A stretch of DNA of 64,000 nucleotides, taken from the NCBI GenBank assembly GCA_946500265.1, contig CAMMVE010000003.1, positions 21,882-85,881 on the forward strand, read 5' to 3'. Positions within the stretch are counted from its first letter, which is position 1, and each line of letters opens with the position of its first letter. The DNA is from an uncultured Clostridium sp. GTDB taxonomy: Bacteria > Bacillota > Clostridia > TANB77 > CAG-508. Of this stretch, positions 1,104 through 58,608 are shown in pieces. The notes below the pieces were generated by a model, which was given only the letters and a program-made list of their open reading frames with translations, was not told the origin of the DNA and ran no database searches. The position numbers and the translations under genes were made by a program.

Positions 1104-1286
1104 AAAAATTAAGCTTTATTTGTTGTGCACAAAATAAAATAGAAATAAAAAATAGATATGAGAGCATAAATAAAACAGATTATTTTGCAATATTTGAGTT
1201 GATAGTTACAAAGCAACTATTATTGCAGGATAGTCTGTTTTATTGACCTTTTGAAAAGAACAATACAAATTTCAGGAGGTAAGAAA

Positions 1287-3251
1287 ATGTTAATAAAAAT
1301 AAAAAGTAATGATATAGAAAAATCAGAAAAAGACAATGGTATAACATTAGTTGCATTAGTAATAACGGTAATAATTATAATAATTCTAGCGACGGTAACA
1401 CTAAACTTTACATTCGGAGAAGATGGAATAATAACGAAGGCAAACCAAGCAAAATACATGGCAGAATTATCAACATTTCAAGAAGAACTAGGGCTATATA
1501 AAGCAAATAAACAAATCTCAGAAGAAGGATTTAGTGCAGAGAGTATAACAGCAGGAGAAGGAAACTTAAGTTATGTAACAGATGATGGAATAGTAACAGA
1601 AGGAACAATATATGATGTAATAACAAGTTTAAGAGGAAGTAGTTTTGCAGGCAAAATGGAGATAATAAAAGGAGAGCTACTAATAAACTCACAAGATATG
1701 GAGGAGATAAGAGTAGCACAAAGTATGGGAATACAAGTAAATCCATATATAATAGTAGATGGAGAACTAAAGTCAGATGGAGCAAACCTAGCACTAATGG
1801 ATAGTTCTGGAACACTAACAATACCAGATGGAGTAACAGCAATAGGAGAGGGAGCATTTGCAGATTTAAGTGGATTAAAAACAATAATAATACCAGGGAC
1901 AGTAAAAGAAATAAGGCAAAATGCATTTAGAAATAATGCAGATTTAGAGAATGTGATTTTACAAGAAGGAGTGGAAGTAATAGGATATAGAGCTTTTCAA
2001 GAATGTGGTAACCTAAAAAATGTAGAATTACCAGAGAGCTTGATAGAGATAGGCGCGGGTGCATTTTTTAGATGCAGTAGTATAAATAATATAATAATAC
2101 CATCGAAGATAGAAATAATAAATGCTTATACTTTTTATTATTGTACTAGTTTGACAAATATAGAATTACCAGATGGACTACAAACAATAGGTGGTTGGTC
2201 TTTTCAAAATTGTACTAGTTTAGAAGAAATATATATACCAGGGAGCGTAAATAGCATAAATAGTACCGCATTTATGAACTGTACAAGTTTAAACAATATA
2301 GAAGTGGCAAGTGGTAATCAACATTATAAATATGATGAGGCAAGTGGAATGTTAATAACAACAGATGGAACAAATATTGTATTTATATCTGCTGCAATTT
2401 TAAGAAGCACAAACACTTTAAACATACCACAAGGAGTAACAAGTTTTACTACAGACATAAGTGAATATAGAAATATAACAACCATAATAATACCAACAAG
2501 TTTAGAAAGAATAGGAACTGCGGAAATATTCCCATTAACAATAAGTAATGTAGAAGTGGCAGAAGGTAACAATTATTTTACAGAGGAAAATGAGTGCTTA
2601 TATAATAAAGATAAAACCAATTTAATTATGTGCTTTACAAAAGATTCAACAGTAAAACTAGCAGATACATTAACAACAGTAAACGATTTTTCATTTAAAC
2701 AAGCACCTAACATAGGACAAGTGAATTTCCCAGATGCTGTTACCACTATAGGAGCTCAAGTATTCACACCTGGCCTTACAAGTTTGGAAAATATAAATAT
2801 AGGGCCAAATGTAACATATATACATCCACTATTTAAATGGAATAATTATTATGGAGAAGTAACAATAGATGCAAATAACCCAAACTACACTATAGAAGAT
2901 AATGAGATATATAACAAGGATAAAACCGAATTAATAGCAGTCTTGTATGAAATTAATGGGCAATACATTGTAAAAGAAGGAGTGACAAAAATAGGAGATA
3001 ATGCATTACATTATAGAACAAATATGACTTCGATAGTACTACCAGATGGATTAAAAGAAATAGGAAGTTCTTTCCAAAATAGTGGATTAACTACAATATA
3101 TATACCAAACAGTGTAGACACGATAGAAAGTAATGCTTTTCTAAATGCAGCAAATCTAACTCAAATCCAAATAGACAAAGAGCCTGGAAGTATAGCAGGC
3201 TCGCCATGGGGAGCAATAAGAGGAGATAGAATAGTAGAGTGGCTAAGATAA
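1287..3251 (+). CDS. BspA-type leucine-rich-repeat (LRR_5-like) surface protein with prepilin-like N-terminal hydrophobic segment
   Basis: AGGAGG 8 nt before ATG 1287 (ORF-track start 1251 has no RBS); repeated ~23-aa units xIGxxAFxxCxxLxxIxIPxSVxxI; N-term KDNG-ITLVALVITVIIIIIL resembles class III signal (Ala not Glu at +5). Confidence 0.8.
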   Translation: MLIKIKSNDIEKSEKDNGITLVALVITVIIIIILATVTLNFTFGEDGIITKANQAKYMAELSTFQEELGLYKANKQISEEGFSAESITAGEGNLSYVTDDGIVTEGTIYDVITSLRGSSFAGKMEIIKGELLINSQDMEEIRVAQSMGIQVNPYIIVDGELKSDGANLALMDSSGTLTIPDGVTAIGEGAFADLSGLKTIIIPGTVKEIRQNAFRNNADLENVILQEGVEVIGYRAFQECGNLKNVELPESLIEIGAGAFFRCSSINNIIIPSKIEIINAYTFYYCTSLTNIELPDGLQTIGGWSFQNCTSLEEIYIPGSVNSINSTAFMNCTSLNNIEVASGNQHYKYDEASGMLITTDGTNIVFISAAILRSTNTLNIPQGVTSFTTDISEYRNITTIIIPTSLERIGTAEIFPLTISNVEVAEGNNYFTEENECLYNKDKTNLIMCFTKDSTVKLADTLTTVNDFSFKQAPNIGQVNFPDAVTTIGAQVFTPGLTSLENINIGPNVTYIHPLFKWNNYYGEVTIDANNPNYTIEDNEIYNKDKTELIAVLYEINGQYIVKEGVTKIGDNALHYRTNMTSIVLPDGLKEIGSSFQNSGLTTIYIPNSVDTIESNAFLNAANLTQIQIDKEPGSIAGSPWGAIRGDRIVEWLR

Positions 3252-3373: not shown

Positions 3374-3639
3374 TTAGCATCAAACTAACAAATAAATTAA
3401 AAAATCCGTTACTTGTCCCAAAATGTGATTTGATAAATAGCTTTAATATAGTAATTTAAAAAAAATTATGATATACTAATGAGTATATAAAGATTAGTTT
3501 CAACGAAATAGCGGACAAGTATGTTTAATAAATTTGATTAACTAATAGTATAAATATAAAAATGGAGAAGAAATTATACATGTACATTTTGAAAGACTAA
3601 CTGACAATGGATTTGATAGTGTTAGGTTTGAACTTCCAA

Positions 3640-3870
3640 GTTGTAAAATACTATACAGATGAAGAAATAGAAATGTTTAGAGCGATAGTAGAAAGAGGTT
3701 TGCCATCTTTTTATAGATGGGCTAGACAAGGAGGGATTCTTAGTGCCTAATATACTAGAAATTTTACGGTTATAAAATTTATTTTTGGTCAAATGAGAAT
3801 AATGAGCCTATTCATATACACATTTCAAAAGGAAAGACAACACAAAACCCAGAGCAAGAAGTAAGATTTT
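3640..3870 (+). pseudogene. Degraded remnants of a DUF4160-like gene (..NENNEPIHIHISKGK.. motif) and a neighbouring small gene, split over frames
   Basis: Short frames ..YYTDEEIEMFRAIVERGLPSFYRWARQGGILSA* and ..TVIKFIFGQ / NENNEPIHIHISKGKTTQNPEQEVRFYC*; NEPxHxH motif recalled for DUF4160; no intact ORF. Confidence 0.3.
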
Positions 3871-3946
3871 ATTGTTAATGGTTGGAAGTTATAAGTTATA
3901 ATATATAAAGTTATTCCGTGAAGATGTAAAAAAATAAAATATATAC

Positions 3947-3975: not shown

Positions 3976-4334
3976 AGAAAAAGTTAATATAAAAGAAGGA
4001 TATATAGCAAAAAGAGTAAATTTTAAACAGCATATTGCGTATTAAATAACGATAAGCATAAGAGTAAAAAACGAAGGAGAATGAAAAAAATGAAAAACCA
4101 GCAAACCGTTGATATTGTAAGAGAGAGAGAGAGAGAGAGAGCATAATTTAGAGAAATTAAGCTTTATTTGTGATGCACAAAATAAAGTAGAAATAAAAAA
4201 TAAATATGAGTATATAAATAAAACAGATTATTTTGCAATATTTAAGTTGACAGATACAAAGCAACCATTATTGCAGGATAGTCTGTTTTATTGACCTCTT
4301 GAAAAGAACAATATAAATTTCAGGAGGTAAGAAA
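3976..4334 (+). promoter_or_regulatory. Conserved 5' leader copy 2 (uORF 4090-4146 with (AG)11, GGATAGTCTGTTTT at 4276-4289)
   Basis: Near-identical to 914-1286. Confidence 0.4.
4120..4141. repeat. (AG)11 microsatellite
   Basis: Perfect AG x11. Confidence 0.95.
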
Positions 4335-6308
4335 ATGTTAATAAAAATAAAAAGTAATGATATAGAAAAATCAGAAAAAGACAATGGTATAACATTAGTT
4401 GCATTAGTAATAACGGTAATAATTATAATAATTCTAGCGACGGTAACACTAAACTTTACATTCGGAGAAGATGGAATAATAACGAAGGCAAACCAAGCAA
4501 AATACATGGCAGAATTATCAACATTTCAAGAAGAACTAGGGCTATATAAAGCAAATAAACAAATCTCAGAAGAAGGATTTAGTGCAGAGAGTATAACAGC
4601 AGGAGAAGGAAACTTAAGTTATGTAACAGATGATGGAATAGTAACAGAAGGAACAATATATGATGTAATAACAAGTTTAAGAGGAAGTAGTTTTGCAGGT
4701 AAATTAGAAATAATAAAAGGAGAGCTACTAATAAATTCACAAGATATGGAAGAAATAAAAGTAGCACAAAGTATGGGAATACAAGTAAATCCATACATAA
4801 TAATAGATGGAGAACTAAAGTCAGATGGAGCAAACTTAGCACTAATGGATAGCACAGGGACATTAACAATACCGGATGGAGTAACGAAGATAGGAAATGG
4901 AGCATTTGCAAACTTAAGTGGCTTAAAGACAATAATAATACCAGGAACAGTAAAAGAGATAGGACAAGATGCTTTTAGAAATAATGCGGATTTAGAAAGA
5001 GTGATATTACAAGAAGGTGTAGAAATAATAGGTACAAGTGCATTTTATAGGTGTGAAAACCTTACAAATATAAGTTTACCCAACAGCATAAAAACTATAA
5101 AAAATCAAGCTTTTATGGAATGTGATGTTTTAGACAATATATCAATACCAAATCAAATACAGATAATAGAAAACTATACATTTTATAGTTGTGACAATTT
5201 GACAAATTTAAAATTATCAGATAGTTTACAAAAAATAGAAGCTGCTGCTTTTGCTGGTTGTACAAAATTAAATAATATCTATTTGCCTATGAATTTAAAA
5301 GATATAACATATAATGCATTTGATAATTGCATAAATTTAATAAATATAGAAATAGCGAAAGAAAATACGAAATATAGTTATAATAAAGAAAATGGAATAT
5401 TATTAGATATAGAAAGCAATGACATTATATTCATATCAAGTTCAGCATTAAATAATATAACCACATTTAGTATACCAGATGGAATTAGAGAATTTAAAAA
5501 TGATATTAGTCAATATACTAATATACAAACAATAATTATACCTAAGAGTTTAGAAAAGATTTATTTGATAGAAATTCTTCCAAAAAGTATATCAAATATA
5601 GAAATTATTGAAGGAAATACAAATTTTGTTGTTGAAAATGAATGCTTATACAATACAGATAAAACAGAATTAATGTTATGTTTTACAAAAGATACAGAAG
5701 TAAATTTAGCAAGTAGCATAGTAAAAGTATATGATTACGCATTTAAGTGTGCACCTAATTTAGAGAATATAACATTTCCTAATTCAGTAACTAGCATAGG
5801 TGGTCAAGCACTAAGAGACTGCACAAAGTTAAAGAATGTATATATAGGACCAAATGTATCATCTATAAATCCAATTTTTAAATTTAAAAACTATAGTGGA
5901 ACAGTAGTTATTGATGAAGCAAATCCAAATTACAGTATTGAAAATAATGAAATATATAATAAAGACAAGACAGAGCTAATTTCTATATTACATGATATTC
6001 AGGGTAGTTATACAGTAAAAGATGGGGTGACTAAAATAGGAGACAGAGTATTTCATTATATGGGGAAAATGACAGAAATAATATTGCCAGAAGGCTTGAA
6101 AGAAATAGGAACTTCTTTTAATTCTTGTACAAGATTAACAGAAATATTTATACCAAACAGTGTAGATAAAATAGCATCAGATGCGTTTAAAAATTCAACA
6201 AACTTAATGCATATACGTATAGATAAAGCTCCAAACACTATAGAAGGAGCACCATGGGGAGCTATAAGCTGGGATAGAGCAGTAGAGTGGCTAAGACCGG
6301 AAGAATAA
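4335..6308 (+). CDS. BspA-type LRR surface protein paralog with prepilin-like N-terminus
   Basis: AGGAGG before ATG 4335; first ~140 aa near-identical to gene at 1287 then divergent LRR_5-like repeats; C-terminal APWGAISWDRAVEWLR shared. Confidence 0.85.
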   Translation: MLIKIKSNDIEKSEKDNGITLVALVITVIIIIILATVTLNFTFGEDGIITKANQAKYMAELSTFQEELGLYKANKQISEEGFSAESITAGEGNLSYVTDDGIVTEGTIYDVITSLRGSSFAGKLEIIKGELLINSQDMEEIKVAQSMGIQVNPYIIIDGELKSDGANLALMDSTGTLTIPDGVTKIGNGAFANLSGLKTIIIPGTVKEIGQDAFRNNADLERVILQEGVEIIGTSAFYRCENLTNISLPNSIKTIKNQAFMECDVLDNISIPNQIQIIENYTFYSCDNLTNLKLSDSLQKIEAAAFAGCTKLNNIYLPMNLKDITYNAFDNCINLINIEIAKENTKYSYNKENGILLDIESNDIIFISSSALNNITTFSIPDGIREFKNDISQYTNIQTIIIPKSLEKIYLIEILPKSISNIEIIEGNTNFVVENECLYNTDKTELMLCFTKDTEVNLASSIVKVYDYAFKCAPNLENITFPNSVTSIGGQALRDCTKLKNVYIGPNVSSINPIFKFKNYSGTVVIDEANPNYSIENNEIYNKDKTELISILHDIQGSYTVKDGVTKIGDRVFHYMGKMTEIILPEGLKEIGTSFNSCTRLTEIFIPNSVDKIASDAFKNSTNLMHIRIDKAPNTIEGAPWGAISWDRAVEWLRPEE

Positions 6309-6800
6309 ATGAGCACAGTACTCATATAGCAGAAAAAGTATAAAAATGCAAGAACACGATAATATAATAAGGAATTGCTTACTCCAAAGTTATACAAAGG
6401 TCGAAATATATCATAAAATGTCGAAAAGTTATGATTGATTTCGACCTATATTTGTGATATAAATATAAACATAATGATTAGGTCTAATGTGCAATTCAAA
6501 TTATTACTTTATGAAATAGTTTAATAGTATCTATTTTTTACTCAATAATATAATTAGTTCAATATATTAAAATTGAAATCTTGATTAATTAAAATATTCT
6601 GCATACAAATACATATAAATTTTTATTATTATTTGTTAATATATCTTAATATTTCATTAGTTTTCAATCAAATAAAATCCAAATGATTAATTTAATATAT
6701 TTAATTTAAACAAAATCTCAACAAAAAACCAAGAGAAAAATAAAAAATATACAATGTACACAAGATTTAATTGTTAAATAAATTTTAGGAGGAATTGTGT

Positions 6801-7703
6801 ATGGAACAAAACAAATCAAAAGAAATAAAGAAGGAAGAAATATTATCACCGATGATAGATGTAGTATTTCAAATGTTATTTGGAGAGGTGGGGAGTGAGA
6901 AGATAACACAAGATTTTTTAAGTGCAATATTAAAAGAAAAAATAGAAACAATAAGTTTAGATCAAAATATAGTATTACGAAGAGAGTTACCCAAAGGGAA
7001 AATGGGTATAGTAGATGTGTTAGCAAAAATAAATGACAATGAATTTTGCAATGTAGAAATGCAAATGGCAGACAAAAAGAATATGATAAAGAGGATGTTA
7101 TATTACTGGGCAAGGCAGTATGCAAAAGAAATAGGCAAAAAAGAGGAGTATAAAGAACTAAAAAGGACAATAGTAGTACTAATAGCAAATTTTGAATTTG
7201 ATAAATTGAGAGAATTAGGAGTACATAGCAGATGGAAAATAATAGAGGAAGAAAGGCGAAAAATAGTATTGACAGAGGATTTAGAGTTTAATATAATTGA
7301 AGTACCAAAAATGTATAAGGAGAAACAAGCAAGAGACGAAAAGCTAATAGAATGCCTAAAATTCTTGGAGAATCCGGAAAGCAAAGAGGTGCAGGGGTAT
7401 ATGAAAAAGAATGAGAATATGAAAGAAGCAAGAGAGAAACTAGACAAAATGAGTAAGGATGAGAAAGTAAGAAGGATGGCAGAATTAAGACAAAAGGCAC
7501 TAATGGATGAAAGAGAAGCTGAATATACAGGTTATATTAATGGGTTAGAAGATGGAATAAAGCAAGGAATGAAACAGGGACTAGAGCAAGGAATAGGGCA
7601 AGGATATAGAGAAATTGCGAAGAAAATGAAAGGCAAAGGAAAAGATATAAATGAAATAATTGAATTAACCGGATTAAGTAAAGAAGAAATAGAAAAGTTG
7701 TAA
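6801..7703 (+). CDS. Rpn-family recombination-promoting nuclease / PD-(D/E)XK putative transposase (YhgA-like)
   Basis: TAGGAGG 8 nt before ATG 6801; conserved N-terminal ..MIDVVFQMLFG..FLSAILK..DVLAKIND..NVEMQ.. block and Gly/Gln-rich C-terminal tail typical of the family. Confidence 0.75.
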   Translation: MEQNKSKEIKKEEILSPMIDVVFQMLFGEVGSEKITQDFLSAILKEKIETISLDQNIVLRRELPKGKMGIVDVLAKINDNEFCNVEMQMADKKNMIKRMLYYWARQYAKEIGKKEEYKELKRTIVVLIANFEFDKLRELGVHSRWKIIEEERRKIVLTEDLEFNIIEVPKMYKEKQARDEKLIECLKFLENPESKEVQGYMKKNENMKEAREKLDKMSKDEKVRRMAELRQKALMDEREAEYTGYINGLEDGIKQGMKQGLEQGIGQGYREIAKKMKGKGKDINEIIELTGLSKEEIEKL

Positions 7704-7720
7704 AAAAGTGTTAATGGTAA

Positions 7721-7819
7721 TTAATGCATGTACGTATAGATAAAGAGCCAAATACTATAGAAGGAGCACCATGGGGAGCAATAGCTTGGGCAAAATATGA
7801 TATAAATAACCAAGAATAA
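7721..7819 (+). pseudogene. Orphan 3' fragment of a third BspA-LRR paralog (..LMHVRIDKEPNTIEGAPWGAIAWAKYDINNQE*)
   Basis: 32-codon frame matches C-terminal 30 aa of genes 1287..3251 and 4335..6308 (NLMHIRIDKAPNTIEGAPWGAISW); no upstream ORF. Confidence 0.55.
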
Positions 7820-7976: not shown

Positions 7977-8078
7977 CATTCGGAGACCTATCCCTTGCCG
8001 ACAAAATGTCGGCTGGAGACCTGTTACCAAAGTGCTAAATTGGTGACTGTGGTCCTGTCCCTGAAGCAACAAAGGAGC
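7977..8078. repeat. B-type palindromic repeat cluster (GCCGACAAAATGTCGGC / GGAGACCTGTCCC units) immediately upstream of era
   Basis: Palindrome GCCGACA-aaa-TGTCGGC; units shared with 55832-55903 and 61197-61262. Confidence 0.55.
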
Positions 8079-15235: not shown

Positions 15236-15333
15236 GACAAGGGGACAGTCCCCTCGTCTCAGTTTTGAACAGAAGGGACACTCCTTTTTGTTCAAGTTTT
15301 TGAACTTTTTGGAGTGTCCCTTCTGTTCAAGTT
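15236..15333. repeat. A-type palindromic element (two hairpins; perfect 21-bp inverted repeat CTTGAACAGAAGGGACACTCC) between convergent genes
   Basis: CTGAGACAAGGGGACAGTCCCCTCGTCTCAG then CTTGAACAGAAGGGACACTCC...GGAGTGTCCCTTCTGTTCAAG; likely bidirectional terminator. Confidence 0.65.
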
Positions 15334-17221: not shown

Positions 17222-17563
17222 AAAGGCATACTAAGATAAAAAAAGTAAAAGGATTAAAAAAATACAAAGGAGAAAAAATGAGAATGCATAGAACCATTGA
17301 TACTGTAGAGAGAGAGAGAGAGAGAGAGTAGAATTTAGAGAAACTAGCTTTTTTTGTGATGCAAAAAAAGTAGTAAATATATTAAAGATAGAAACAATAA
17401 ATATATGTGCAAATAAAGCAGATTATCAAGAAGTATTAGGAGTTTTTGAAATTCTAATGCTAACGGATAGTCTGTTTTTTTGGTGAGTTTATTAAAAACA
17501 AAATAAAGAGATAATAATAAAAGAAAGATTAAAATTTTAAGAAAACGGAGGTACAAAAAGAAA
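17222..17563 (+). promoter_or_regulatory. 5' leader copy 3 (uORF 17278-17331 MRMHRTIDTVERERERE, (AG)11, GGATAGTCTGTTTTTTT 17464-17480)
   Basis: Diverged but alignable to leaders at 914 and 3976; same order of elements. Confidence 0.4.
17307..17328. repeat. (AG)11 microsatellite
   Basis: Perfect AG x11. Confidence 0.95.
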
Positions 17564-28729: not shown

Positions 28730-28839
28730 AGTGCTAACTTTGTAAATACTTTGTGAAAATTCAAAAATTGTATTGAAAAAAATAATTTAATATGATAATA
28801 TATAGTTACATTAAGAAAATAAATATTAATTCCCTGCGT

Positions 28840-29012
28840 AGTGCGTGTAGACTGGAATTTTAGAACCAACAATAGATTAAAGGGAGTCCGCCTTTGAATG
28901 TGGCGTGTAAGCTTGCATTTATGTAAGAAACCCAGGAGCATTCAACAAGACACCCACCTGTGAAAGCAGGCTCTTAAAATTTCATTCATCTTGCGGCTAA
29001 TGTGGGGGATTT
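28840..29012 (+). promoter_or_regulatory. GC-elevated ~170-nt candidate structured RNA / cis-regulatory leader ending in terminator-like CACCCAC...GTGGGGGATTTTTG
   Basis: Local GC far above the 28% background with no ORF; GNRA-like hairpin CCTG-tgaaag-CAGG; T-run just before RBS of gene at 29031; family not identified. Confidence 0.3.
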
Positions 29013-32096: not shown

Positions 32097-32137
32097 CTTG
32101 AACAAAAGGGACACTCCTTTTTGTTCAAGCTCTTGAA
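32097..32137. repeat. A-type palindromic element CTTGAACAAAAGGGACACTCCTTTTTGTTCAAG
   Basis: Hairpin with GACACT loop; shares core with 15272-15330, 33051-33172, 63508-63600. Confidence 0.6.
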
Positions 32138-32217
32138 CATTTGAGATAGTTATATTCGTTCAATTCAAGAAAAACAAAAGACGAAAGGATCTACTGCCTT
32201 TCGCTTAAGTTTTCTAT

Positions 32218-32940
32218 TTAATTAAATTGTTCATAGTATTCGTCCAAGCTATCAAGCAAATCATTTGCATCCGATTCAGATAAATAGCCATATTCTTGCA
32301 TATCCGATATTACTTTTTCTTGACGGCTTCTTGTTAAGTCCGGATTTACTGTAGGAGCATATACACTAGGAGCATTTGGCACTCCTGCCATCATTGTACA
32401 GTCTGCTAAAGTCATTTCCGTTGATGATTTGCCTAGGTAACCTTGGCAAGCTTCTTCTATTCCATAATATCCATCTCCAAAATATATTGTATTTACGTAT
32501 AATTCTACAATATCATCTTTGGAGTATTTGTTTTCTAAATCAAATGCTGTTATTATTTCTGCTATTTTTCGTACAATAGGTCTATCTTCTTCTATATAGA
32601 ATATATTTTTAGCTACTTGCTGAGCAATTGTGCTTCCACCTTCACGCAATGACATAGTTGTTATATTTACATATAGAGCACGACCTATTGCAATAATGTC
32701 TATTGCTCCATGGTCTCTATATCTATGATCTTCTACAGCTATAACTGCATTTATATAATTCTGCGGCAAATCTTCATATTGAACATAGCTAGGGTCGAGC
32801 TGTATATCTTCTATAACTTCTTCAAGGGTTTGATCTCCGAGAGCTTCTTTATACATATTATTACCGAGTACAAATAATGTAATTCCAGTTATAAGGATAA
32901 TTGCTAATATAATTAGTAGTACATTTCTTACTATTTTCAA
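32218..32940 (-). CDS. Monofunctional peptidoglycan transglycosylase (GT51 domain) with N-terminal TM anchor
   Basis: ..AVEDHRYRDHGAIDIIAIGRA..REGGSTIAQQVAKNIF.. transglycosylase motifs. Confidence 0.8.
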   Translation of the reverse strand: MKIVRNVLLIILAIILITGITLFVLGNNMYKEALGDQTLEEVIEDIQLDPSYVQYEDLPQNYINAVIAVEDHRYRDHGAIDIIAIGRALYVNITTMSLREGGSTIAQQVAKNIFYIEEDRPIVRKIAEIITAFDLENKYSKDDIVELYVNTIYFGDGYYGIEEACQGYLGKSSTEMTLADCTMMAGVPNAPSVYAPTVNPDLTRSRQEKVISDMQEYGYLSESDANDLLDSLDEYYEQFN

Positions 32941-33050
32941 ATCTAGTCACCTCTTATACTTTTTTATTTATAAATTCTATCTATCTCTACTAAAAAATAT
33001 TATAACATATAAATGTATATTTTTTTATTAATAATTTATTAAAATTAAAA

Positions 33051-33172
33051 GTGTCCCAAAAGTTCAAAGACTTGAACGAAAAGGAGTGTTCCTAAAGTTC
33101 AAAGACTTGAACGAAAAGGAGTGTCCCTAAAGTTTAAAAAATGGACAAAAAGGAGCGTCCTTTTTGCCCAAG
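33051..33172. repeat. Tandem array (about 3 units) of A-type elements (GGAGTGTyCCTAAAGTTCAAAGACTTGAACGAAAA) ending in hairpin CAAAAAGGAGCGTCCTTTTTG
   Basis: Direct repeats read in sequence; last hairpin plus T-run on minus strand serves as murC terminator. Confidence 0.6.
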
Positions 33173-33179
33173 ATAGAGC

Positions 33180-37302: not shown

Positions 37303-37351
37303 GGCAAATCACATAAAAAGTCGTTAAATAAAAAGTTGAATAAAAAAGCAC

Positions 37352-37380
37352 TTGAAAAATAAATGCTACTAAGATAGAAT
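37352..37380 (+). promoter_or_regulatory. Orphan copy of the cassette promoter (TTGAAA-17-TAGAAT) without (AG)n leader
   Basis: CACTTGAAAAATAAATGCTACTAAGATAGAAT nearly identical to 17191-17221 and 58294-58324. Confidence 0.35.
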
Positions 37381-37602
37381 AAAACTATCATGGGACAAGG
37401 ATCATTTCTTCCAACTTATTTTTATTTGTAGCAGCTTCTTGCTCTTTGTATTGCTCAATTTGAAGCTCCATTAATTCTTGTGGTGAATATCCATATAAAC
37501 AATAATGTGGAAGTAGGAAGAAAATCTTTCAAAAAAGTTGTAATAAATGCTAAATTATTATATAATATATATGTACTTTATTTAATTGAATATGGAGGAA
37601 AT

Positions 37603-37896
37603 ATGCCAACAGAATTAAAAAAATATTTTTGGGATACTGATTTTGAAAGATTAGATTTACAAAAAAATAAAGAATATATAATATCAAGATTATATTGTTA
37701 TGGAGATTTGAAAGCAATAAGATGGGTAAACAATACATATTCAAGAGAAGACATAAAAAAAGTTGCTATAAAAAGGAGAGATTTAAAACCAATTGTTGCC
37801 AATTATTTAAGGCAGCAGTTCAATTTGAAAAAAGAAGAGATGGCGTATTATAGAACAGTATCAGCAATAAATTACGAATATTGGAAGGTGAATTAG
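37603..37896 (+). CDS. Small protein upstream partner of AbiEii-like toxin (possible antitoxin)
   Basis: TGGAGGAA SD before ATG 37603; 97 aa (..KKYFWDTDFERLDLQKNKEYIISRLYCYGDLKAIRW..); ends 4 nt before next gene. Confidence 0.5.
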   Translation: MPTELKKYFWDTDFERLDLQKNKEYIISRLYCYGDLKAIRWVNNTYSREDIKKVAIKRRDLKPIVANYLRQQFNLKKEEMAYYRTVSAINYEYWKVN

Positions 37897-55831: not shown

Positions 55832-55903
55832 ATGTCGCATTGGGGACAGGTCTCCAGGCGACATTTTGTCGTTTTAGGGACAGGTCTCTCGCCGACATTT
55901 TGC
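55832..55903. repeat. B-type repeat, two tandem units (GGGACAGGTCTC..GCGACATTTTGTCG)
   Basis: Inverse orientation relative to 61197-61262 and 7977-8078. Confidence 0.6.
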
Positions 55904-56442: not shown

Positions 56443-56473
56443 AAAAGAGCGTAAAAAGCTCTTTTTTTGTTTA

Positions 56474-56725
56474 TTATAAATCAATTCCATCAAACAAATC
56501 TGATATTGAAACTTTTAATGCTTTAGCAAATCGATAAACTTCGAAGTCTGCAATAAACTTTTTTCCGTTTTCTAGTTTAGAAATATCAGAACGACTGATT
56601 TGATATCCCATTACTTGCATCCTGGCACACAAATCTTCTTGAGTTACCTTTTTTTCTTTTCTTATTCTTAGTATGTTATTTCCGGTAATATTATATGAAT
56701 CATTAAATTTCTTATTTTTTTGCAT
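56474..56725 (-). CDS. XRE-family helix-turn-helix transcriptional regulator
   Basis: ..ILRIRKEKKVTQEDLCARMQVMGYQISRSDISKLENGKK.. HTH_3 pattern. Confidence 0.8.
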   Translation of the reverse strand: MQKNKKFNDSYNITGNNILRIRKEKKVTQEDLCARMQVMGYQISRSDISKLENGKKFIADFEVYRFAKALKVSISDLFDGIDL

Positions 56726-56859
56726 TTCTCTCTCCTAAAAATGTTCTAAAAAAGAACAAAAGTTACAAATGTAAGATTACAAAATTTCACCTTTTTATGT
56801 TGCTAAAAAAATTAAACTGTAATATAATGTAGAAGAAAATAAAATCTTGGAGGAAAAAG

Positions 56860-58324: not shown

Positions 58325-58608
58325 AAGAATATGCTAGAAGGTTACGCATGAACAAATGAAAATAAGGAGAAAAAATAAAGAAATGAAAATTGATAAAACT
58401 CTTGATACTGTAGAGAGATACAATTTACTCAACATGGATATCGAAATCAGTATCAGAAGAGAACTATACAGAAGAATTAGATAGAATAAAAACAAGTGAA
58501 GGCTTAAGAAATGATATTGAATTAAGTCTTATTTGTGATATAGAAAAAGTAAAAAGGAAGAATGTCACAATATAGTACGAAAAAACTAGAAAAAGGAGAT
58601 AAAAGAGT

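Follow-up and report, generated by a model that had tools for sequence, protein, structure and literature searches.

Genes of the Rpn nuclease family stand beside genes for surface proteins in the stretch of DNA analysed here (64,000 nucleotides of an uncultured Clostridium sp., hereafter the window), and the question that this arrangement raises is whether the nucleases serve to vary the neighbouring proteins. A sequence-only reading of this DNA had proposed exactly that, namely a dedicated variation system in which a gene fragment behind the first Rpn gene is a leftover recombination substrate. The Rpn family is very widespread and has only recently been recast as toxin–antitoxin and anti-phage genes, with action as a transposase judged unlikely (PMC10400941).

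The Rpn-family genes of the window

The first Rpn gene, rpn1, lies at 6801-7703 (ATG at 6801, TAA at 7701-7703; all features given here are on the forward strand unless stated otherwise), is intact and encodes 300 amino acids. Its product matches PF12784 (PDDEXK_2; E=1.8e-45, 155.9 bits, cut-off 27.4) and TIGR01784, ‘Rpn family recombination-promoting nuclease/putative transposase’ (152.8 bits, curated cut-off 52.1). The catalytic residues D20, D72, E86 and Q88 are all invariant across 36 homologues and are the counterparts of D11, D63, E82 and Q84 of RpnA (PMC5350276), with 52 residues between the two aspartates in both proteins. A weak tblastn match of Rpn1 on the reverse strand (32233-32826, E=0.008), considered as a possible fourth copy, proved to be a transglycosylase (PF00912, E=8e-55). 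A scan of reference genome contigs with Rpn1 matched only two short MAG contigs.

The second gene, rpn2 (19495-20406), has an intact nuclease core with the catalytic residues D19, D70, E84 and Q86, and is only 27% identical to Rpn1. It matches PF12784 (E=7.7e-44, 150.6 bits, cut-off 27.4) and TIGR01784 (87.3 bits, cut-off 52.1). Its reading frame ends at 20292, and the C-terminal tail goes on in the +1 frame from about 20257, where the four-residue repeat tract begins; this frameshift is absent from the sequence-only reading. The frameshifted product of 265 amino acids represents a 24-member cluster (P0243), and intact relatives of 291 amino acids exist at 91-92% identity. The region upstream of rpn2 (19098-19494) is conserved in a three-way alignment with the third locus and with another organism (L116), and has a promoter TTGATA (19451-19456)-17-TAAAAT (19474-19479). 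It also contains the window repeat families D12 and D14.

The third gene, rpn3 (60662-61044), is a 3′ remnant whose nuclease half is deleted, with 84% nucleotide identity to the 3′ part of rpn2. It has none of the four catalytic residues, and its TIGR01784 score of 37.5 bits falls under the cut-off of 52.1 because just the C-terminal third is left. The Rpn2-type upstream region is kept at this locus (60261-60661, 76-92% identical to 19098-19481), including a promoter TTGATA (60615-60620)-17-TACAAT (60638-60643).

The sequence-only reading had placed the three genes at exactly these coordinates, and its assignment to the Rpn family is borne out by the profile matches and, for rpn3, by the identity to rpn2. 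The YhgA-like profile PF04754 (Transposase_31) gave no match at E<=0.01 for the window Rpn genes. By their profile matches these genes are placed in the PDDEXK_2 branch (PF12784/TIGR01784; COG5464), as relatives from a sister branch and not orthologues of YhgA-like genes. The RpnA model NF007361 matches just the C-terminus of Rpn3 (18.5 bits against a cut-off of 583, E=1e-3), and PADLOC (2023) returned no defence-family match or fitting model for the window Rpn genes beyond a marginal ‘putative invertase’.

The three genes probably follow the design described for E. coli and C. difficile, in which a full-length nuclease (RpnL) is restrained by a small protein, RpnS. Synthesis of RpnS begins at a start codon inside the rpnL gene, and the protein consists of the C-terminal three-helix domain that bears the repeats. 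A candidate internal start is found in rpn1 at 7386-7403, with a Shine–Dalgarno sequence GAGGTG (7386-7391), a spacer of 9 nt and an ATG (7401-7403, Met201) from which an RpnS-like protein of 100 amino acids is predicted. Met201 is invariant among the aligned homologues, and an internal ATG with an SD-like GAGGT or GGAGG 9 nt upstream is found in nearly all of 22 Rpn1-like lineages (47-100% identity). The SD-like motif overlaps conserved codons and uses GAG codons though the genome is 30% GC, and the start signal appears to be conserved over a large PDDEXK_2 clade of gut Clostridia. The candidate internal starts of rpn2 and rpn3 likewise have GGAGG with an ATG or GTG behind it; in rpn3, GGAGG (60729-60733), a spacer of 8 nt and GTG at 60742 open a 100-aa RpnS-like ORF that ends at 61044. 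Furthermore, a perfect sigma-70 consensus inside rpn1 (7269-7297, TTGACA-17-TATAAT, 12/12 matches) is a candidate internal promoter for the RpnS-like product, and internal promoters occur in E. coli rpn genes (PMC10400941). From these signals we infer that RpnS is translated from the internal start in the window Rpn genes.

The repeat tract of rpn1 (7554-7604), which encodes GIKQ GMKQ GLEQ GIGQ, belongs to the long helix within the C-terminal domain. The number of GxxQ/GxxE repeats of this type ranges from 1 to about 12 among homologues, and a protein of 94% identity (P0034) has one. For the Rpn2 type the number is about 1-6, and the lengths of the relatives (288-324 aa) group at steps of about 4 aa. 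Repeat number also differs among close relatives in the RpnL/RpnS genes described before (PMC10400941).

The AlphaFold model of the Rpn3 ORF consists of one long and two short helices, with pLDDT 87-90 over the last 30 residues. Its best PDB fold match is E. coli RpnA-S (7TH0; probability 1.00, target-normalised TM 0.84, rmsd 0.6 Å), with 42% identity over 40 columns (E=0.12), and a profile search of PDB sequences with the RpnS-like domain gave 7TH0 as the sole match (E=0.11); the E-values are weak because the domain is short. In addition, PF27070 (HTH_Rpn_C) is a precomputed annotation on many of the Rpn homologues.

Collectively, the three genes fit the published gene-within-gene RpnL/RpnS architecture of toxin–antitoxin and anti-phage genes; extrapolating from distant relatives, they would have toxin, antitoxin and anti-phage activities. 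We consider it probable that they are toxin–antitoxin nuclease genes of the ordinary Rpn type, one of them intact and two decayed, which travel with surface-protein loci. Rpn2 has lost its C-terminal domain by the frameshift inside the hypervariable repeat tract. Rpn3 has lost the nuclease, but its promoter, its RpnS-like ORF and the candidate internal ribosome-binding site remain, as an orphan antitoxin-like gene; stand-alone RpnS homologues have been reported (PMC10400941). Three life stages are displayed together in the window: an intact gene, a repeat-tract frameshift and an orphan RpnS-like remnant with its promoter.

Surface-protein cassettes and the sources of their diversity

The Rpn genes form the 3′ border of small accessory islets that separate housekeeping operons (hydrogenase/era, AMP-ligase/rimP and O349/recD2), and the same islets carry type-IV-pilin-like adhesin genes, here called cassettes, with LRR or FGE-like C-terminal domains. 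In one relative (L115) hydrogenase and era adjoin, with no islet between them. The first islet holds two tandem paralogues, LRR1 (1278-3251; PF13306, E=4e-71) and LRR2 (4335-6308; PF13306 LRR_5, E=9.5e-83), the latter with a pilin-like N-terminus joined to a BspA-type LRR surface protein. The spacer between LRR1 and LRR2 carries the relic of a DUF4160 gene (3766-3879; PF13711, E=4.8e-7, 30.3 bits against a cut-off of 23), and there is no Rpn gene after LRR1. At the second locus, S470 (17564-18976) combines a pilin-like N-terminus with an FGE/SUMF-like C-terminal domain: its family profile matches type IV pilins (E=0.003) and SUMF2 (1Y4J, E=0.0037), and the single sequence reaches the Pfam FGE domain at just E=0.12. 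The third cassette, S439 (58611-60118), is FGE-like and decayed. Its pilin-like leader is frameshifted, the upstream (GA)n is degenerate, and after a 3′ frameshift the expected C-terminus (LYVK and stop) sits in a different frame at about 60092-60118.

The sequence-only reading had called the cassettes a mosaic family, which we can confirm. Over the 5′ portion, about 750 nt long, LRR1 and LRR2 show 87-100% identity, including a block of 100% identity at 1312-1611; beyond it the identity is 61-71%. A more distant strain (L006) has a different LRR body within a frame that is 98-99% identical, an allele replacement in which identity to the window rises from 60-80% to 91-99% at about 6200. Homologous recombination within the conserved 5′ and 3′ ends is probably one source of cassette diversity. 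Among the near-clonal strains L001 to L005, which are 99.6-100% identical over the cassettes bar (GA)n indels, no shuffling of cassettes was found. An explanation of the FGE-like cassettes by a diversity-generating retroelement was also considered and rejected: Avd and a reverse transcriptase stand beside a cassette homologue in L110, yet there is no template/variable repeat pair, only paralogous cassettes. No reverse transcriptase gene was found near the window cassettes. A search of Rfam with the repeated element upstream of era gave no credible match.

A second source of diversity would be a change in the length of (GA)n in a leader ORF ahead of a terminator-like hairpin. The leader of LRR1 (1035-1250) consists of a short ORF with (GA)11 at 1074-1095, followed by a long hairpin (fold z-score -5.1) and a T-run; there are equivalents at 4081-4300 and 17268-17500 and a degenerate counterpart at 58378-58418. 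In the LRR1 leader the window has (GA)11 where L001, at 99.9% identity, has (GA)10, and the S470 leader has n of 11, 10 or 12 in strains that are also 99.9% identical. At n=10 the leader ORF has 68-69 aa, and at n=11 a stop follows directly past the tract. This length is what actually changes between near-clonal strains. Judging by the position of the leader, we infer that the cassettes are controlled by leader translation. The (GA)n leader occurs with or without Rpn across organisms, and the switch is independent of Rpn. Variation of the surface loci appears to come from the slippery (GA)n tract and not from Rpn. For annotation, these loci should not be read as Rpn-driven antigenic variation; the switch that can be demonstrated is the dinucleotide repeat of the cassette leaders.

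The fragment behind rpn1 is as the sequence-only reading had described it, an orphan LRR 3′ end at 7721-7819 (32 codons and stop) that begins 17 nt past the rpn1 stop and has no upstream gene body. Its first 63 nt (7721-7783) are 92% identical to 6204-6266 (blastn E=4e-20; tblastn 80% over 25 aa), which belong to the conserved 3′ end of LRR2 (6204-6308), where the strain-level recombination breakpoint also lies. The homology begins abruptly at 7721 and fades near 7790, and the bases diagnostic against the LRR2 3′ end are AAAGAGCC and GCTTGGGCAAAA. With in-frame stops immediately 5′ of it and a frame other than that of rpn1, the relic is no part of a longer gene. Identical copies are present in the near-identical strains L001, L004 and L005. 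The 63-nt direct repeat at 6204 and 7721 is gene-derived and not a target duplication. Further silent 3′ fragments had been suggested as a thing to look for; tblastn of all four cassettes against the 64-kb window finds just this relic, at 7721-7795, and thus only the conserved 3′ end. Homology 3′ of the relic is limited to a brief, inexact similarity with the LRR1 terminator region, without blastn support.

We interpret the relic as a scar: a segment that bears rpn1 abuts the remnant of a further LRR copy. The junction would have been illegitimate, without shared homology. Rpn-induced breaks could be the cause of the junction; nothing requires them.

Linkage between Rpn genes and cassettes

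All three Rpn copies of the window follow a cassette. We estimate from the ORF map that the chance of three randomly placed Rpn genes all falling into the 4 post-cassette slots among about 60 intergenic slots is about 1e-4. Rpn2 and Rpn3 have about 400 nt of homologous upstream DNA in common, and loci 2 and 3 therefore count as one ancestral linkage and not two; with the two taken as one event the same estimate is about 3e-3. The claim that each surface locus is followed by an Rpn gene fails for LRR1, which is followed by the DUF4160 relic and then by LRR2.

In a related species (L024), an LRR gene, the intergenic region and an Rpn1-like gene are collinear with 4373-7707 of the window. This block lies directly upstream of rimP, the slot of S470 and rpn2 in the window; its flanks join the left flank of window locus 3 to the right flank of locus 2, and its Rpn1-like copy is N-terminally truncated. 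In L116, the slot between DUF4912 and valS has a cassette-type promoter that runs straight into the Rpn2 upstream region, behind which stands an intact Rpn2, and in L111 the slot between DUF4912 and valS holds two cassettes and an MNT/HEPN pair. We considered whether the Rpn2 unit of L116 had replaced a cassette and left the cassette 3′ flank behind, and rejected this, as the alignment shows the shared right flank to be the upstream region of valS. Cassette and Rpn gene have been inherited, duplicated and moved between slots as one block, and the linkage is therefore real in this lineage, yet it is not general.

The co-occurrence expected by the sequence-only reading is not seen in wider sampling. 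A cassette lies directly upstream in only 2 of the 19 distinct contexts of distant Rpn homologues, and of the 8 cassette homologues that were identified without regard to Rpn, none has an Rpn gene behind it; the genes beside them are PemK, MNT/HEPN, Avd/RT, Asp23, NuoE and DUF4364. Most Rpn homologues stand in unrelated housekeeping contexts, for example between dnaE and an ABC transporter (P0095) or between gyrB and gyrA (P0108). Over the approximately 200-kb flanks of the 19 distant contexts, the sole two cassette genes both occupy the immediately upstream slot (chance roughly 0.01), and members of three different Rpn lineages (the Rpn1 type, the Rpn2 type and the L066/L099 type) stand immediately 3′ of pilin-like genes. 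The adjacency is non-random and exceeds what simple clustering of accessory genes predicts. The linkage nevertheless seems likely to reflect the joint transfer of accessory or selfish (or defence) genes and their clustering in shared islets, and not a need of the cassettes for Rpn.

We entertain, as a tentative and rather unlikely possibility, that in this group of gut Clostridia the Rpn nuclease and a phase-variable pilin-like adhesin make up a two-gene unit in which double-strand breaks by Rpn drive duplication, translocation between intergenic slots and local deletions. Such deletions would include the relic at 7721, the cassette-less module of L116 and the internally deleted rpn3. If true, the Firmicutes would have in this unit an equivalent of the PDDEXK2-cif islands, and Rpn proteins would contribute to genome plasticity as well as to defence.

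It is rather unlikely, in our judgement, that cassette and Rpn form a mobile two-gene element in which Rpn acts like a transposase or homing enzyme and copies or moves the block between slots. The positions of the LRR+Rpn1 block (the era slot in the window, the rimP slot in L024) and of the Rpn2 module (the rimP, recD2 and valS slots) agree with movement of this kind. So does the right end of the conserved block, which is the Rpn stop codon in five copies, whereas the left ends are undefined and differ between copies, and the block ends lack consistent terminal inverted repeats or target duplications (only AT-rich chance pairs are seen), as rpn genes do in general (PMC10400941). The flank junction of L024 implies a rearrangement with breakpoints at islets, but the same pattern is expected from homologous recombination via the conserved promoter/leader and the Rpn 3′ end. 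In Wolbachia, PDDEXK2 genes are reported always to stand next to cid pairs, with co-phylogeny (PMC12445526, PMC13439711). Against an element of two genes, Rpn with about 290 nt moves without a cassette (L066 compared with L075), many Rpn homologues are solitary single-gene insertions, and no autonomous transposase of this fold is known. An element of this kind would parallel the PDDEXK2-cif ‘genomic islands’ proposed in Wolbachia.

The proposal of the sequence-only reading, that Rpn nucleases are a dedicated RecA-independent recombination system that diversifies the adjacent surface genes with the 7721 fragment as silent donor or substrate, we regard as improbable. RpnA overexpression does raise RecA-independent recombination in E. 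coli (PMC5350276), the strain-level breakpoint at about 6200 falls where the segment with a second copy at 7721 begins, and to these can be added the adjacency at all three window loci, the mosaic cassettes and the recurrence of independent Rpn lineages beside pilin-like genes. However, the breakpoints of the mosaic are situated in long tracts of high similarity, as ordinary homologous recombination predicts; two of the three window Rpn copies are defective and the L024 copy is truncated; the 8 independently sampled cassette homologues have no Rpn neighbour; and the (GA)n leader is found whether or not Rpn is. With cassettes and relic unchanged in strains that are 99.6-100% identical overall, a single relic of 70-99 nt as the only silent fragment in 64 kb, and a (GA)n length that varies instead, a dedicated Rpn variation system is unsupported, and co-inherited selfish or defence genes in shared islets are the better reading.

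We also regard as improbable the idea that Rpn is an addiction module whose islet, once lost, takes RpnS with it and kills the cell, so that neighbouring cassettes are preferentially retained: classical toxin–antitoxin pairs (MNT/HEPN, PemK, YoeB/Phd) flank other cassette homologues, a DUF4160 relic lies between LRR1 and LRR2 and the predicted Rpn architecture would suit a toxin–antitoxin system, but RpnS is encoded inside rpnL, so that a deletion takes toxin and antitoxin together and different half-lives would be needed, locus 3 is wholly decayed despite its Rpn gene, and L116 has kept the Rpn gene and lost the cassette.

Comparison with known systems

The closest likeness of the window genes is to the RpnL/RpnS genes (E. 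coli RpnA-E, plasmid RpnP2, C. difficile; Zhong et al. 2023, PMC10400941; Kingston et al. 2017, PMC5350276), with which they share the PD-(D/E)XK core (D..D..ExQ), a candidate internal start ahead of the C-terminal three-helix domain, a hypervariable four-residue repeat within the long helix, stand-alone RpnS-like genes, gain and loss as single genes without inverted repeats or target duplications, and many copies that break metagenome assemblies. They differ in that they belong to the PDDEXK_2 branch and not to the YhgA-like PF04754, and in that this lineage repeatedly has Rpn at the 3′ edge of pilin-like adhesin islets, a placement of which we found no description in the Rpn literature.

The cassettes recall silent-cassette variation (Neisseria pilE/pilS, Borrelia vlsE) in having a promoterless partial copy near an expressed copy and conserved ends around a variable body. 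Unlike those systems, the window has one short relic, which derives from the conserved 3′ end and not from the variable part, and the near-clonal strains are without switching. The leaders resemble simple-sequence-repeat contingency loci, as a dinucleotide tract 5′ of each surface gene varies between otherwise identical strains and shifts a reading frame; the difference is that the tract lies in a leader ORF before a terminator-like hairpin, and not in the structural gene or promoter.

For the linkage itself, the nearest known case is that of the PDDEXK2 ‘transposase’ genes beside cif/cid in Wolbachia and Rickettsiaceae (PMC13439711, PMC12445526). There as here, a PDDEXK_2 gene immediately adjoins a polymorphic, multi-copy and recombining family, and the pair recurs as a repeated unit at several positions, apparently travelling together from one genome to another. 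In Wolbachia, the PDDEXK2 copies are monomorphic and belong to prophage regions with group II intron and MutL genes, whereas the window copies are divergent (27% identity between Rpn1 and Rpn2) and partly decayed, the islets are tiny, chromosomal and set between housekeeping operons, and what they carry is a gene for a pilin-like adhesin that has a (GA)n switch of its own. Adjacency of this type holds at all three window loci and in L024, but at none of the 8 cassette homologues elsewhere. Taken together, the recurrence of Rpn genes with (GA)n-controlled pilin-like adhesins in tiny islets is an echo, in gut Clostridia, of the unexplained PDDEXK2-cif linkage in Wolbachia.

Surface-protein cassettes and their (GA)n leaders

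Four genes in the window (30% GC) encode a type-IV-pilin-like N-terminus (…GITLVALVITxIIIIILA…). In LRR1 (1278-3251) and LRR2 (4335-6308) it is joined to BspA-type LRR_5 repeats and in S470 (17564-18976) to an FGE/SUMF-like C-terminal domain, while S439 (about 58611-60118), frameshifted at both ends, is 22% identical to S470. The S470 family comprises 4370 proteins (E<=1e-8) without a Pfam domain, a highly diverse set of gut-metagenome proteins that lack Glu5 in the pilin-like N-terminus, and the nearest non-identical relative of S470 is 71% identical. The family profile matches pilins at its N-terminus and sulfatase-modifying factor 2 (1Y4J, E=0.0037) at its C-terminus. We found that a contig of an uncultured gut Clostridia MAG (L006) matches the window at 99% at the protein level, and several human-gut assemblies hold near-identical contigs.

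Upstream of every cassette lie a conserved promoter and then a leader, which combines an ORF containing a (GA)n tract with a long hairpin. The leaders are at 1035-1250, 4081-4300 and 17268-17500, with a degenerate copy at 58378-58418. Across strains that are 99.9% identical, n is 11 or 10 in the LRR1 leader and 11, 10 or 12 in the S470 leader, and the sole differences between the window and one metagenome contig (L001) over 17.7 kb include 2-nt changes in (GA)n tracts. With n=10 the leader ORF has 68-69 aa and runs through the hairpin; with n=11 it ends just past the tract, at about 23 aa. The strong hairpin (z=-5.1) has a stem of ~24 bp with a T-run 3′ of it; further downstream, the Shine-Dalgarno sequence is covered by a second stem. 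The CCGTTGATACTGTA(GA)n leader is also found 5′ of cassette homologues in organisms without an adjoining Rpn gene, and (GA)n leaders occur at five other loci (L108, L110, L111, L112 and L114). The leader looks like a device for phase variation through leader translation and attenuation, conserved across organisms.

An extra cassette-type promoter (CACTTGAAAAATAAATGCTACTAAGATAGAATAA, 37331-37382) lies 5′ of a non-cassette ORF (37480-37896); the spacer sequence common to these promoters could be bound by a regulator or sigma factor rather than reflect shared ancestry. Locus 3 (58378-60118) is a wholly decayed module, with its (GA) tract down to GAGAGA, a frameshift near 58730 in its pilin-like leader, and the C-terminal ...LYVK* that S439 should conserve out of frame near 60092-60118.

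State of the Rpn genes and their linkage to cassettes

The sequence-only reading had placed three Rpn-family nuclease genes and an orphan LRR piece beside the cassettes, and all of these coordinates were confirmed, as was the family assignment (PDDEXK_2/TIGR01784, 'Rpn family'). Rpn1 (6801-7703) is intact, with 300 aa. Rpn2 (19495-20406), of the same family, shares just 27% identity with Rpn1 and carries a frameshift at about 20257, exactly where a four-residue repeat tract begins; its ORF terminates at 20292 and the C-terminal tail lies in the +1 frame. The frameshifted product represents a 24-member cluster, which excludes an assembly error, and intact 291-aa relatives are 91-92% identical. 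Of Rpn3 (60662-61044), an Rpn2-type gene (84% nucleotide identity to Rpn2), only the 3′ third remains, and ~400 nt 5′ of it are homologous to the Rpn2 upstream region (76-92%). Because both parts are of Rpn2 type, Rpn3 arose by an internal deletion of ~530 bp, with loss of the start codon and the nuclease domain.

Mutagenesis of E. coli RpnA identified D11, D63, E82 and Q84 as catalytic (PMC5350276). D20, D72, E86 and Q88 of Rpn1 are the exact counterparts, with the same 52-residue spacing from D to D, and are invariant across 36 homologues; Rpn2 likewise has these counterparts. The window Rpn proteins belong to the PDDEXK_2 branch and gave no match to PF04754, which is where Pfam places the E. 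coli Rpn proteins.

That an Rpn gene follows every cassette locus holds for the three loci but not for LRR1, which is followed by a DUF4160 gene relic (3766-3879; PF13711, 30.3 bits) in the LRR1-LRR2 spacer, then LRR2, without an Rpn gene 3′ of LRR1. Just 5′ of the DUF4160 relic, about 3560-3750, lies a possible relic of a partner gene. Chance is an unlikely explanation of the linkage inside the window, with an estimate of 1e-4, or 3e-3 if Rpn2 and Rpn3 are counted as a single event.

In related sequences, cassette and Rpn can be seen to move together. In L024, a contig of a species whose housekeeping genes are about 75-85% identical to those of the window, window 4373-7707 has a collinear counterpart made up of an LRR gene, the intergenic region and an Rpn1-like gene (85%). 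This block is directly 5′ of rimP-nusA-infB, the slot held by S470 and Rpn2 in the window. Its left flank (L024 1733-2017) matches window 56473-56757, beside locus 3, and L024 5192-12128 matches window 20423-27630, the right flank of locus 2; a chromosomal rearrangement has joined the two flanks, with breakpoints at cassette/Rpn islets. In a second relative (L116), a unit without a cassette lies between DUF4912 and valS: a cassette-type promoter runs directly into the upstream region of Rpn2 and then an intact copy of the gene (80% over 1.3 kb). The same slot holds two cassettes and an MNT/HEPN pair in L111, and in L115 a hydrogenase operon adjoins era, with no islet. These comparisons indicate that the islets are replaceable accessory segments between conserved operons and that cassette-plus-Rpn blocks have been copied from slot to slot.

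Other elements were also observed. REP-like palindromic intergenic elements (TTGAACAGAAGGGACACTCCTTTTTGTTCAAG), sometimes 35-nt tandem arrays, lie at 15265-15330, 32098-32163, 33035-33177 and 63509-63581 and are conserved in L116 (4401-4490, 12150-12209, 12695-12787). An unclassified ~38-nt motif, (G)ACAAAATGTCGGCnGGAGACCTGTCCCnAAAGC, occurs as two tandem copies at 7978-8075 and 61195-61262, directly 5′ of the era and recD2 start codons, and at 55840-55902 on the minus strand; an Rfam search of the motif gave no match. A 6S RNA gene (28828-29012; RF00013, 108.7 bits) represents the sole Rfam family at gathering score in the window.

Among 80 Rpn1-like metagenome loci (46-64% identity), the 38 with at least 1.5 kb upstream reduce to 19 distinct contexts, and a pilin-like gene is directly upstream in two (L066, L099). 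Both cassette genes in ~200 kb of flank occupy the directly upstream slot (chance roughly 0.01), and Rpn1-like genes are still enriched directly 3′ of pilin-like genes despite the 2/19. Two homologous proteins lie elsewhere, P0095 between dnaE and an ABC transporter and P0108 between gyrB and gyrA. When S470 homologues were chosen independently of Rpn, the downstream neighbour was known for eight cassette genes and was in no case an Rpn gene; the neighbours were PemK, MNT/HEPN, Avd/RT, Asp23, NuoE-like and DUF4364. The linkage does not hold in general: the association is genuine, though its penetrance is low. What the islets have in common is that small selfish or defence genes accompany the cassettes, and Rpn is this lineage's form of that pattern. 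In other organisms, tandem pairs of cassette homologues, at L110 4539-11441 and L111 8001-13023, are split by toxin–antitoxin genes (PemK; MNT/HEPN). The L110 homologues adjoin genes for bAvd and a reverse transcriptase as well as a group II intron, and a DGR template/variable repeat pair was looked for and not found.

Mosaicism and the relic at 7721-7819

LRR1 and LRR2 (1160-1900 vs 4208-4950) share 87-100% identity through the leader and codons 1 to ~200, reaching 100% over 1312-1611; 3′ of the shared part, identity drops abruptly to 61-71%. Such a profile is the mark of a recent conversion event between tandem paralogues. In L006 the LRR body differs (60-80%), and from about 6200 the 3′ end, the intergenic region and Rpn1 are 91-99% identical. 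Cassette mosaicism is real, and its breakpoints fall inside long conserved tracts, where ordinary homologous recombination would be expected to place them.

The proposal that the Rpn nucleases and the 7721 fragment form a dedicated system varying these genes is unsupported: contigs from other samples, 99.6-100% identical overall, carry LRR genes and a relic identical to those of the window. Decay has also affected Rpn2, Rpn3, the Rpn1-like copy in L024 (231 aa) and locus 3 in its entirety, which speaks against a dedicated enzyme maintained by selection.

The orphan fragment itself is genuine. Its first 63 nt (7721-7783) share 92% identity with 6204-6266 (E=4e-20), the homology starting abruptly 17 nt past the Rpn1 stop, and the fragment is not part of a longer gene, with upstream in-frame stops and a reading frame other than that of Rpn1. 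The right part (…AWAKYDINNQE*) diverges from LRR1 and LRR2, so the relic comes from a third allele; it is the only cassette fragment in the 64 kb. The relic-Rpn1 junction shows no shared homology, and in all five compared copies the conserved Rpn block terminates within ~3 nt of the stop codon. On its simplest reading, the relic would be the scar of an illegitimate join, in which an Rpn1 segment was placed against a further LRR copy or most of that copy was deleted. Rpn1 could still be lost by recombination between the two 63-nt direct repeats (6204 and 7721), and the repeats could also be the mark of a Campbell-type circle insertion. That Rpn promotes the movement or deletion of blocks is a minority reading, which we regard as improbable.

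Comparison with known systems

The window nucleases are ordinary Rpn genes, correctly observed. Previous work has described rpn genes as toxin–antitoxin and anti-phage genes-within-genes, in which the toxic full-length nuclease is kept in check by RpnS, a small product of an internal start; the first helix of RpnS has a four-residue repeat of strain-dependent copy number, RpnS homologues also stand alone, rpn genes are gained or lost one at a time without inverted repeats or target duplications, and a transposase role is unlikely (Zhong et al. 2023, PMC10400941). Each sequence-level trait named there has a counterpart, or at least a candidate for one, in the window Rpn genes. There are four GxxQ units in Rpn1, one in P0034 (94% identical) and up to ~12 in other close homologues; repeat number also varies among Rpn2 homologues, whose lengths (288-324 aa) cluster at ~4-aa steps. 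Met201 of Rpn1 is ATG in 22/22 Rpn1-like lineages (47-100% identity), with a GAGGT/GGAGG motif ending 9 nt 5′ of it in nearly all, and a candidate internal start (GGAGG, then ATG or GTG) is at the equivalent site of Rpn2 and Rpn3. A 12/12 sigma-70 consensus at 7269-7297 is a candidate promoter within rpn1.

The RpnA-S structure (7TH0) is the sole PDB sequence match of the Rpn family profile. It is also the best fold match (probability 1.00, target-normalised TM 0.84, 0.6 Å, 42% identity) of the AlphaFold model of the 100-aa Rpn3 ORF, one long helix and two short ones. Besides this ORF, Rpn3 retains a promoter (TTGATA-17-TACAAT, 60615-60643) and a putative internal ribosome-binding site. Rather than mere debris, it would seem to be an orphan gene of the RpnS type.

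In the Wolbachia PDDEXK2-cif islands, a recombining multi-copy gene pair always has a gene of the PDDEXK2 Pfam family beside it, which has been proposed to mobilise the pair (PMC12445526, PMC13439711). These islands, which have the Pfam family in common with the window, are the closest analogue of the Rpn-cassette linkage, and RpnL/RpnS is the closest known system, which the window Rpn genes would match in every feature testable by sequence.
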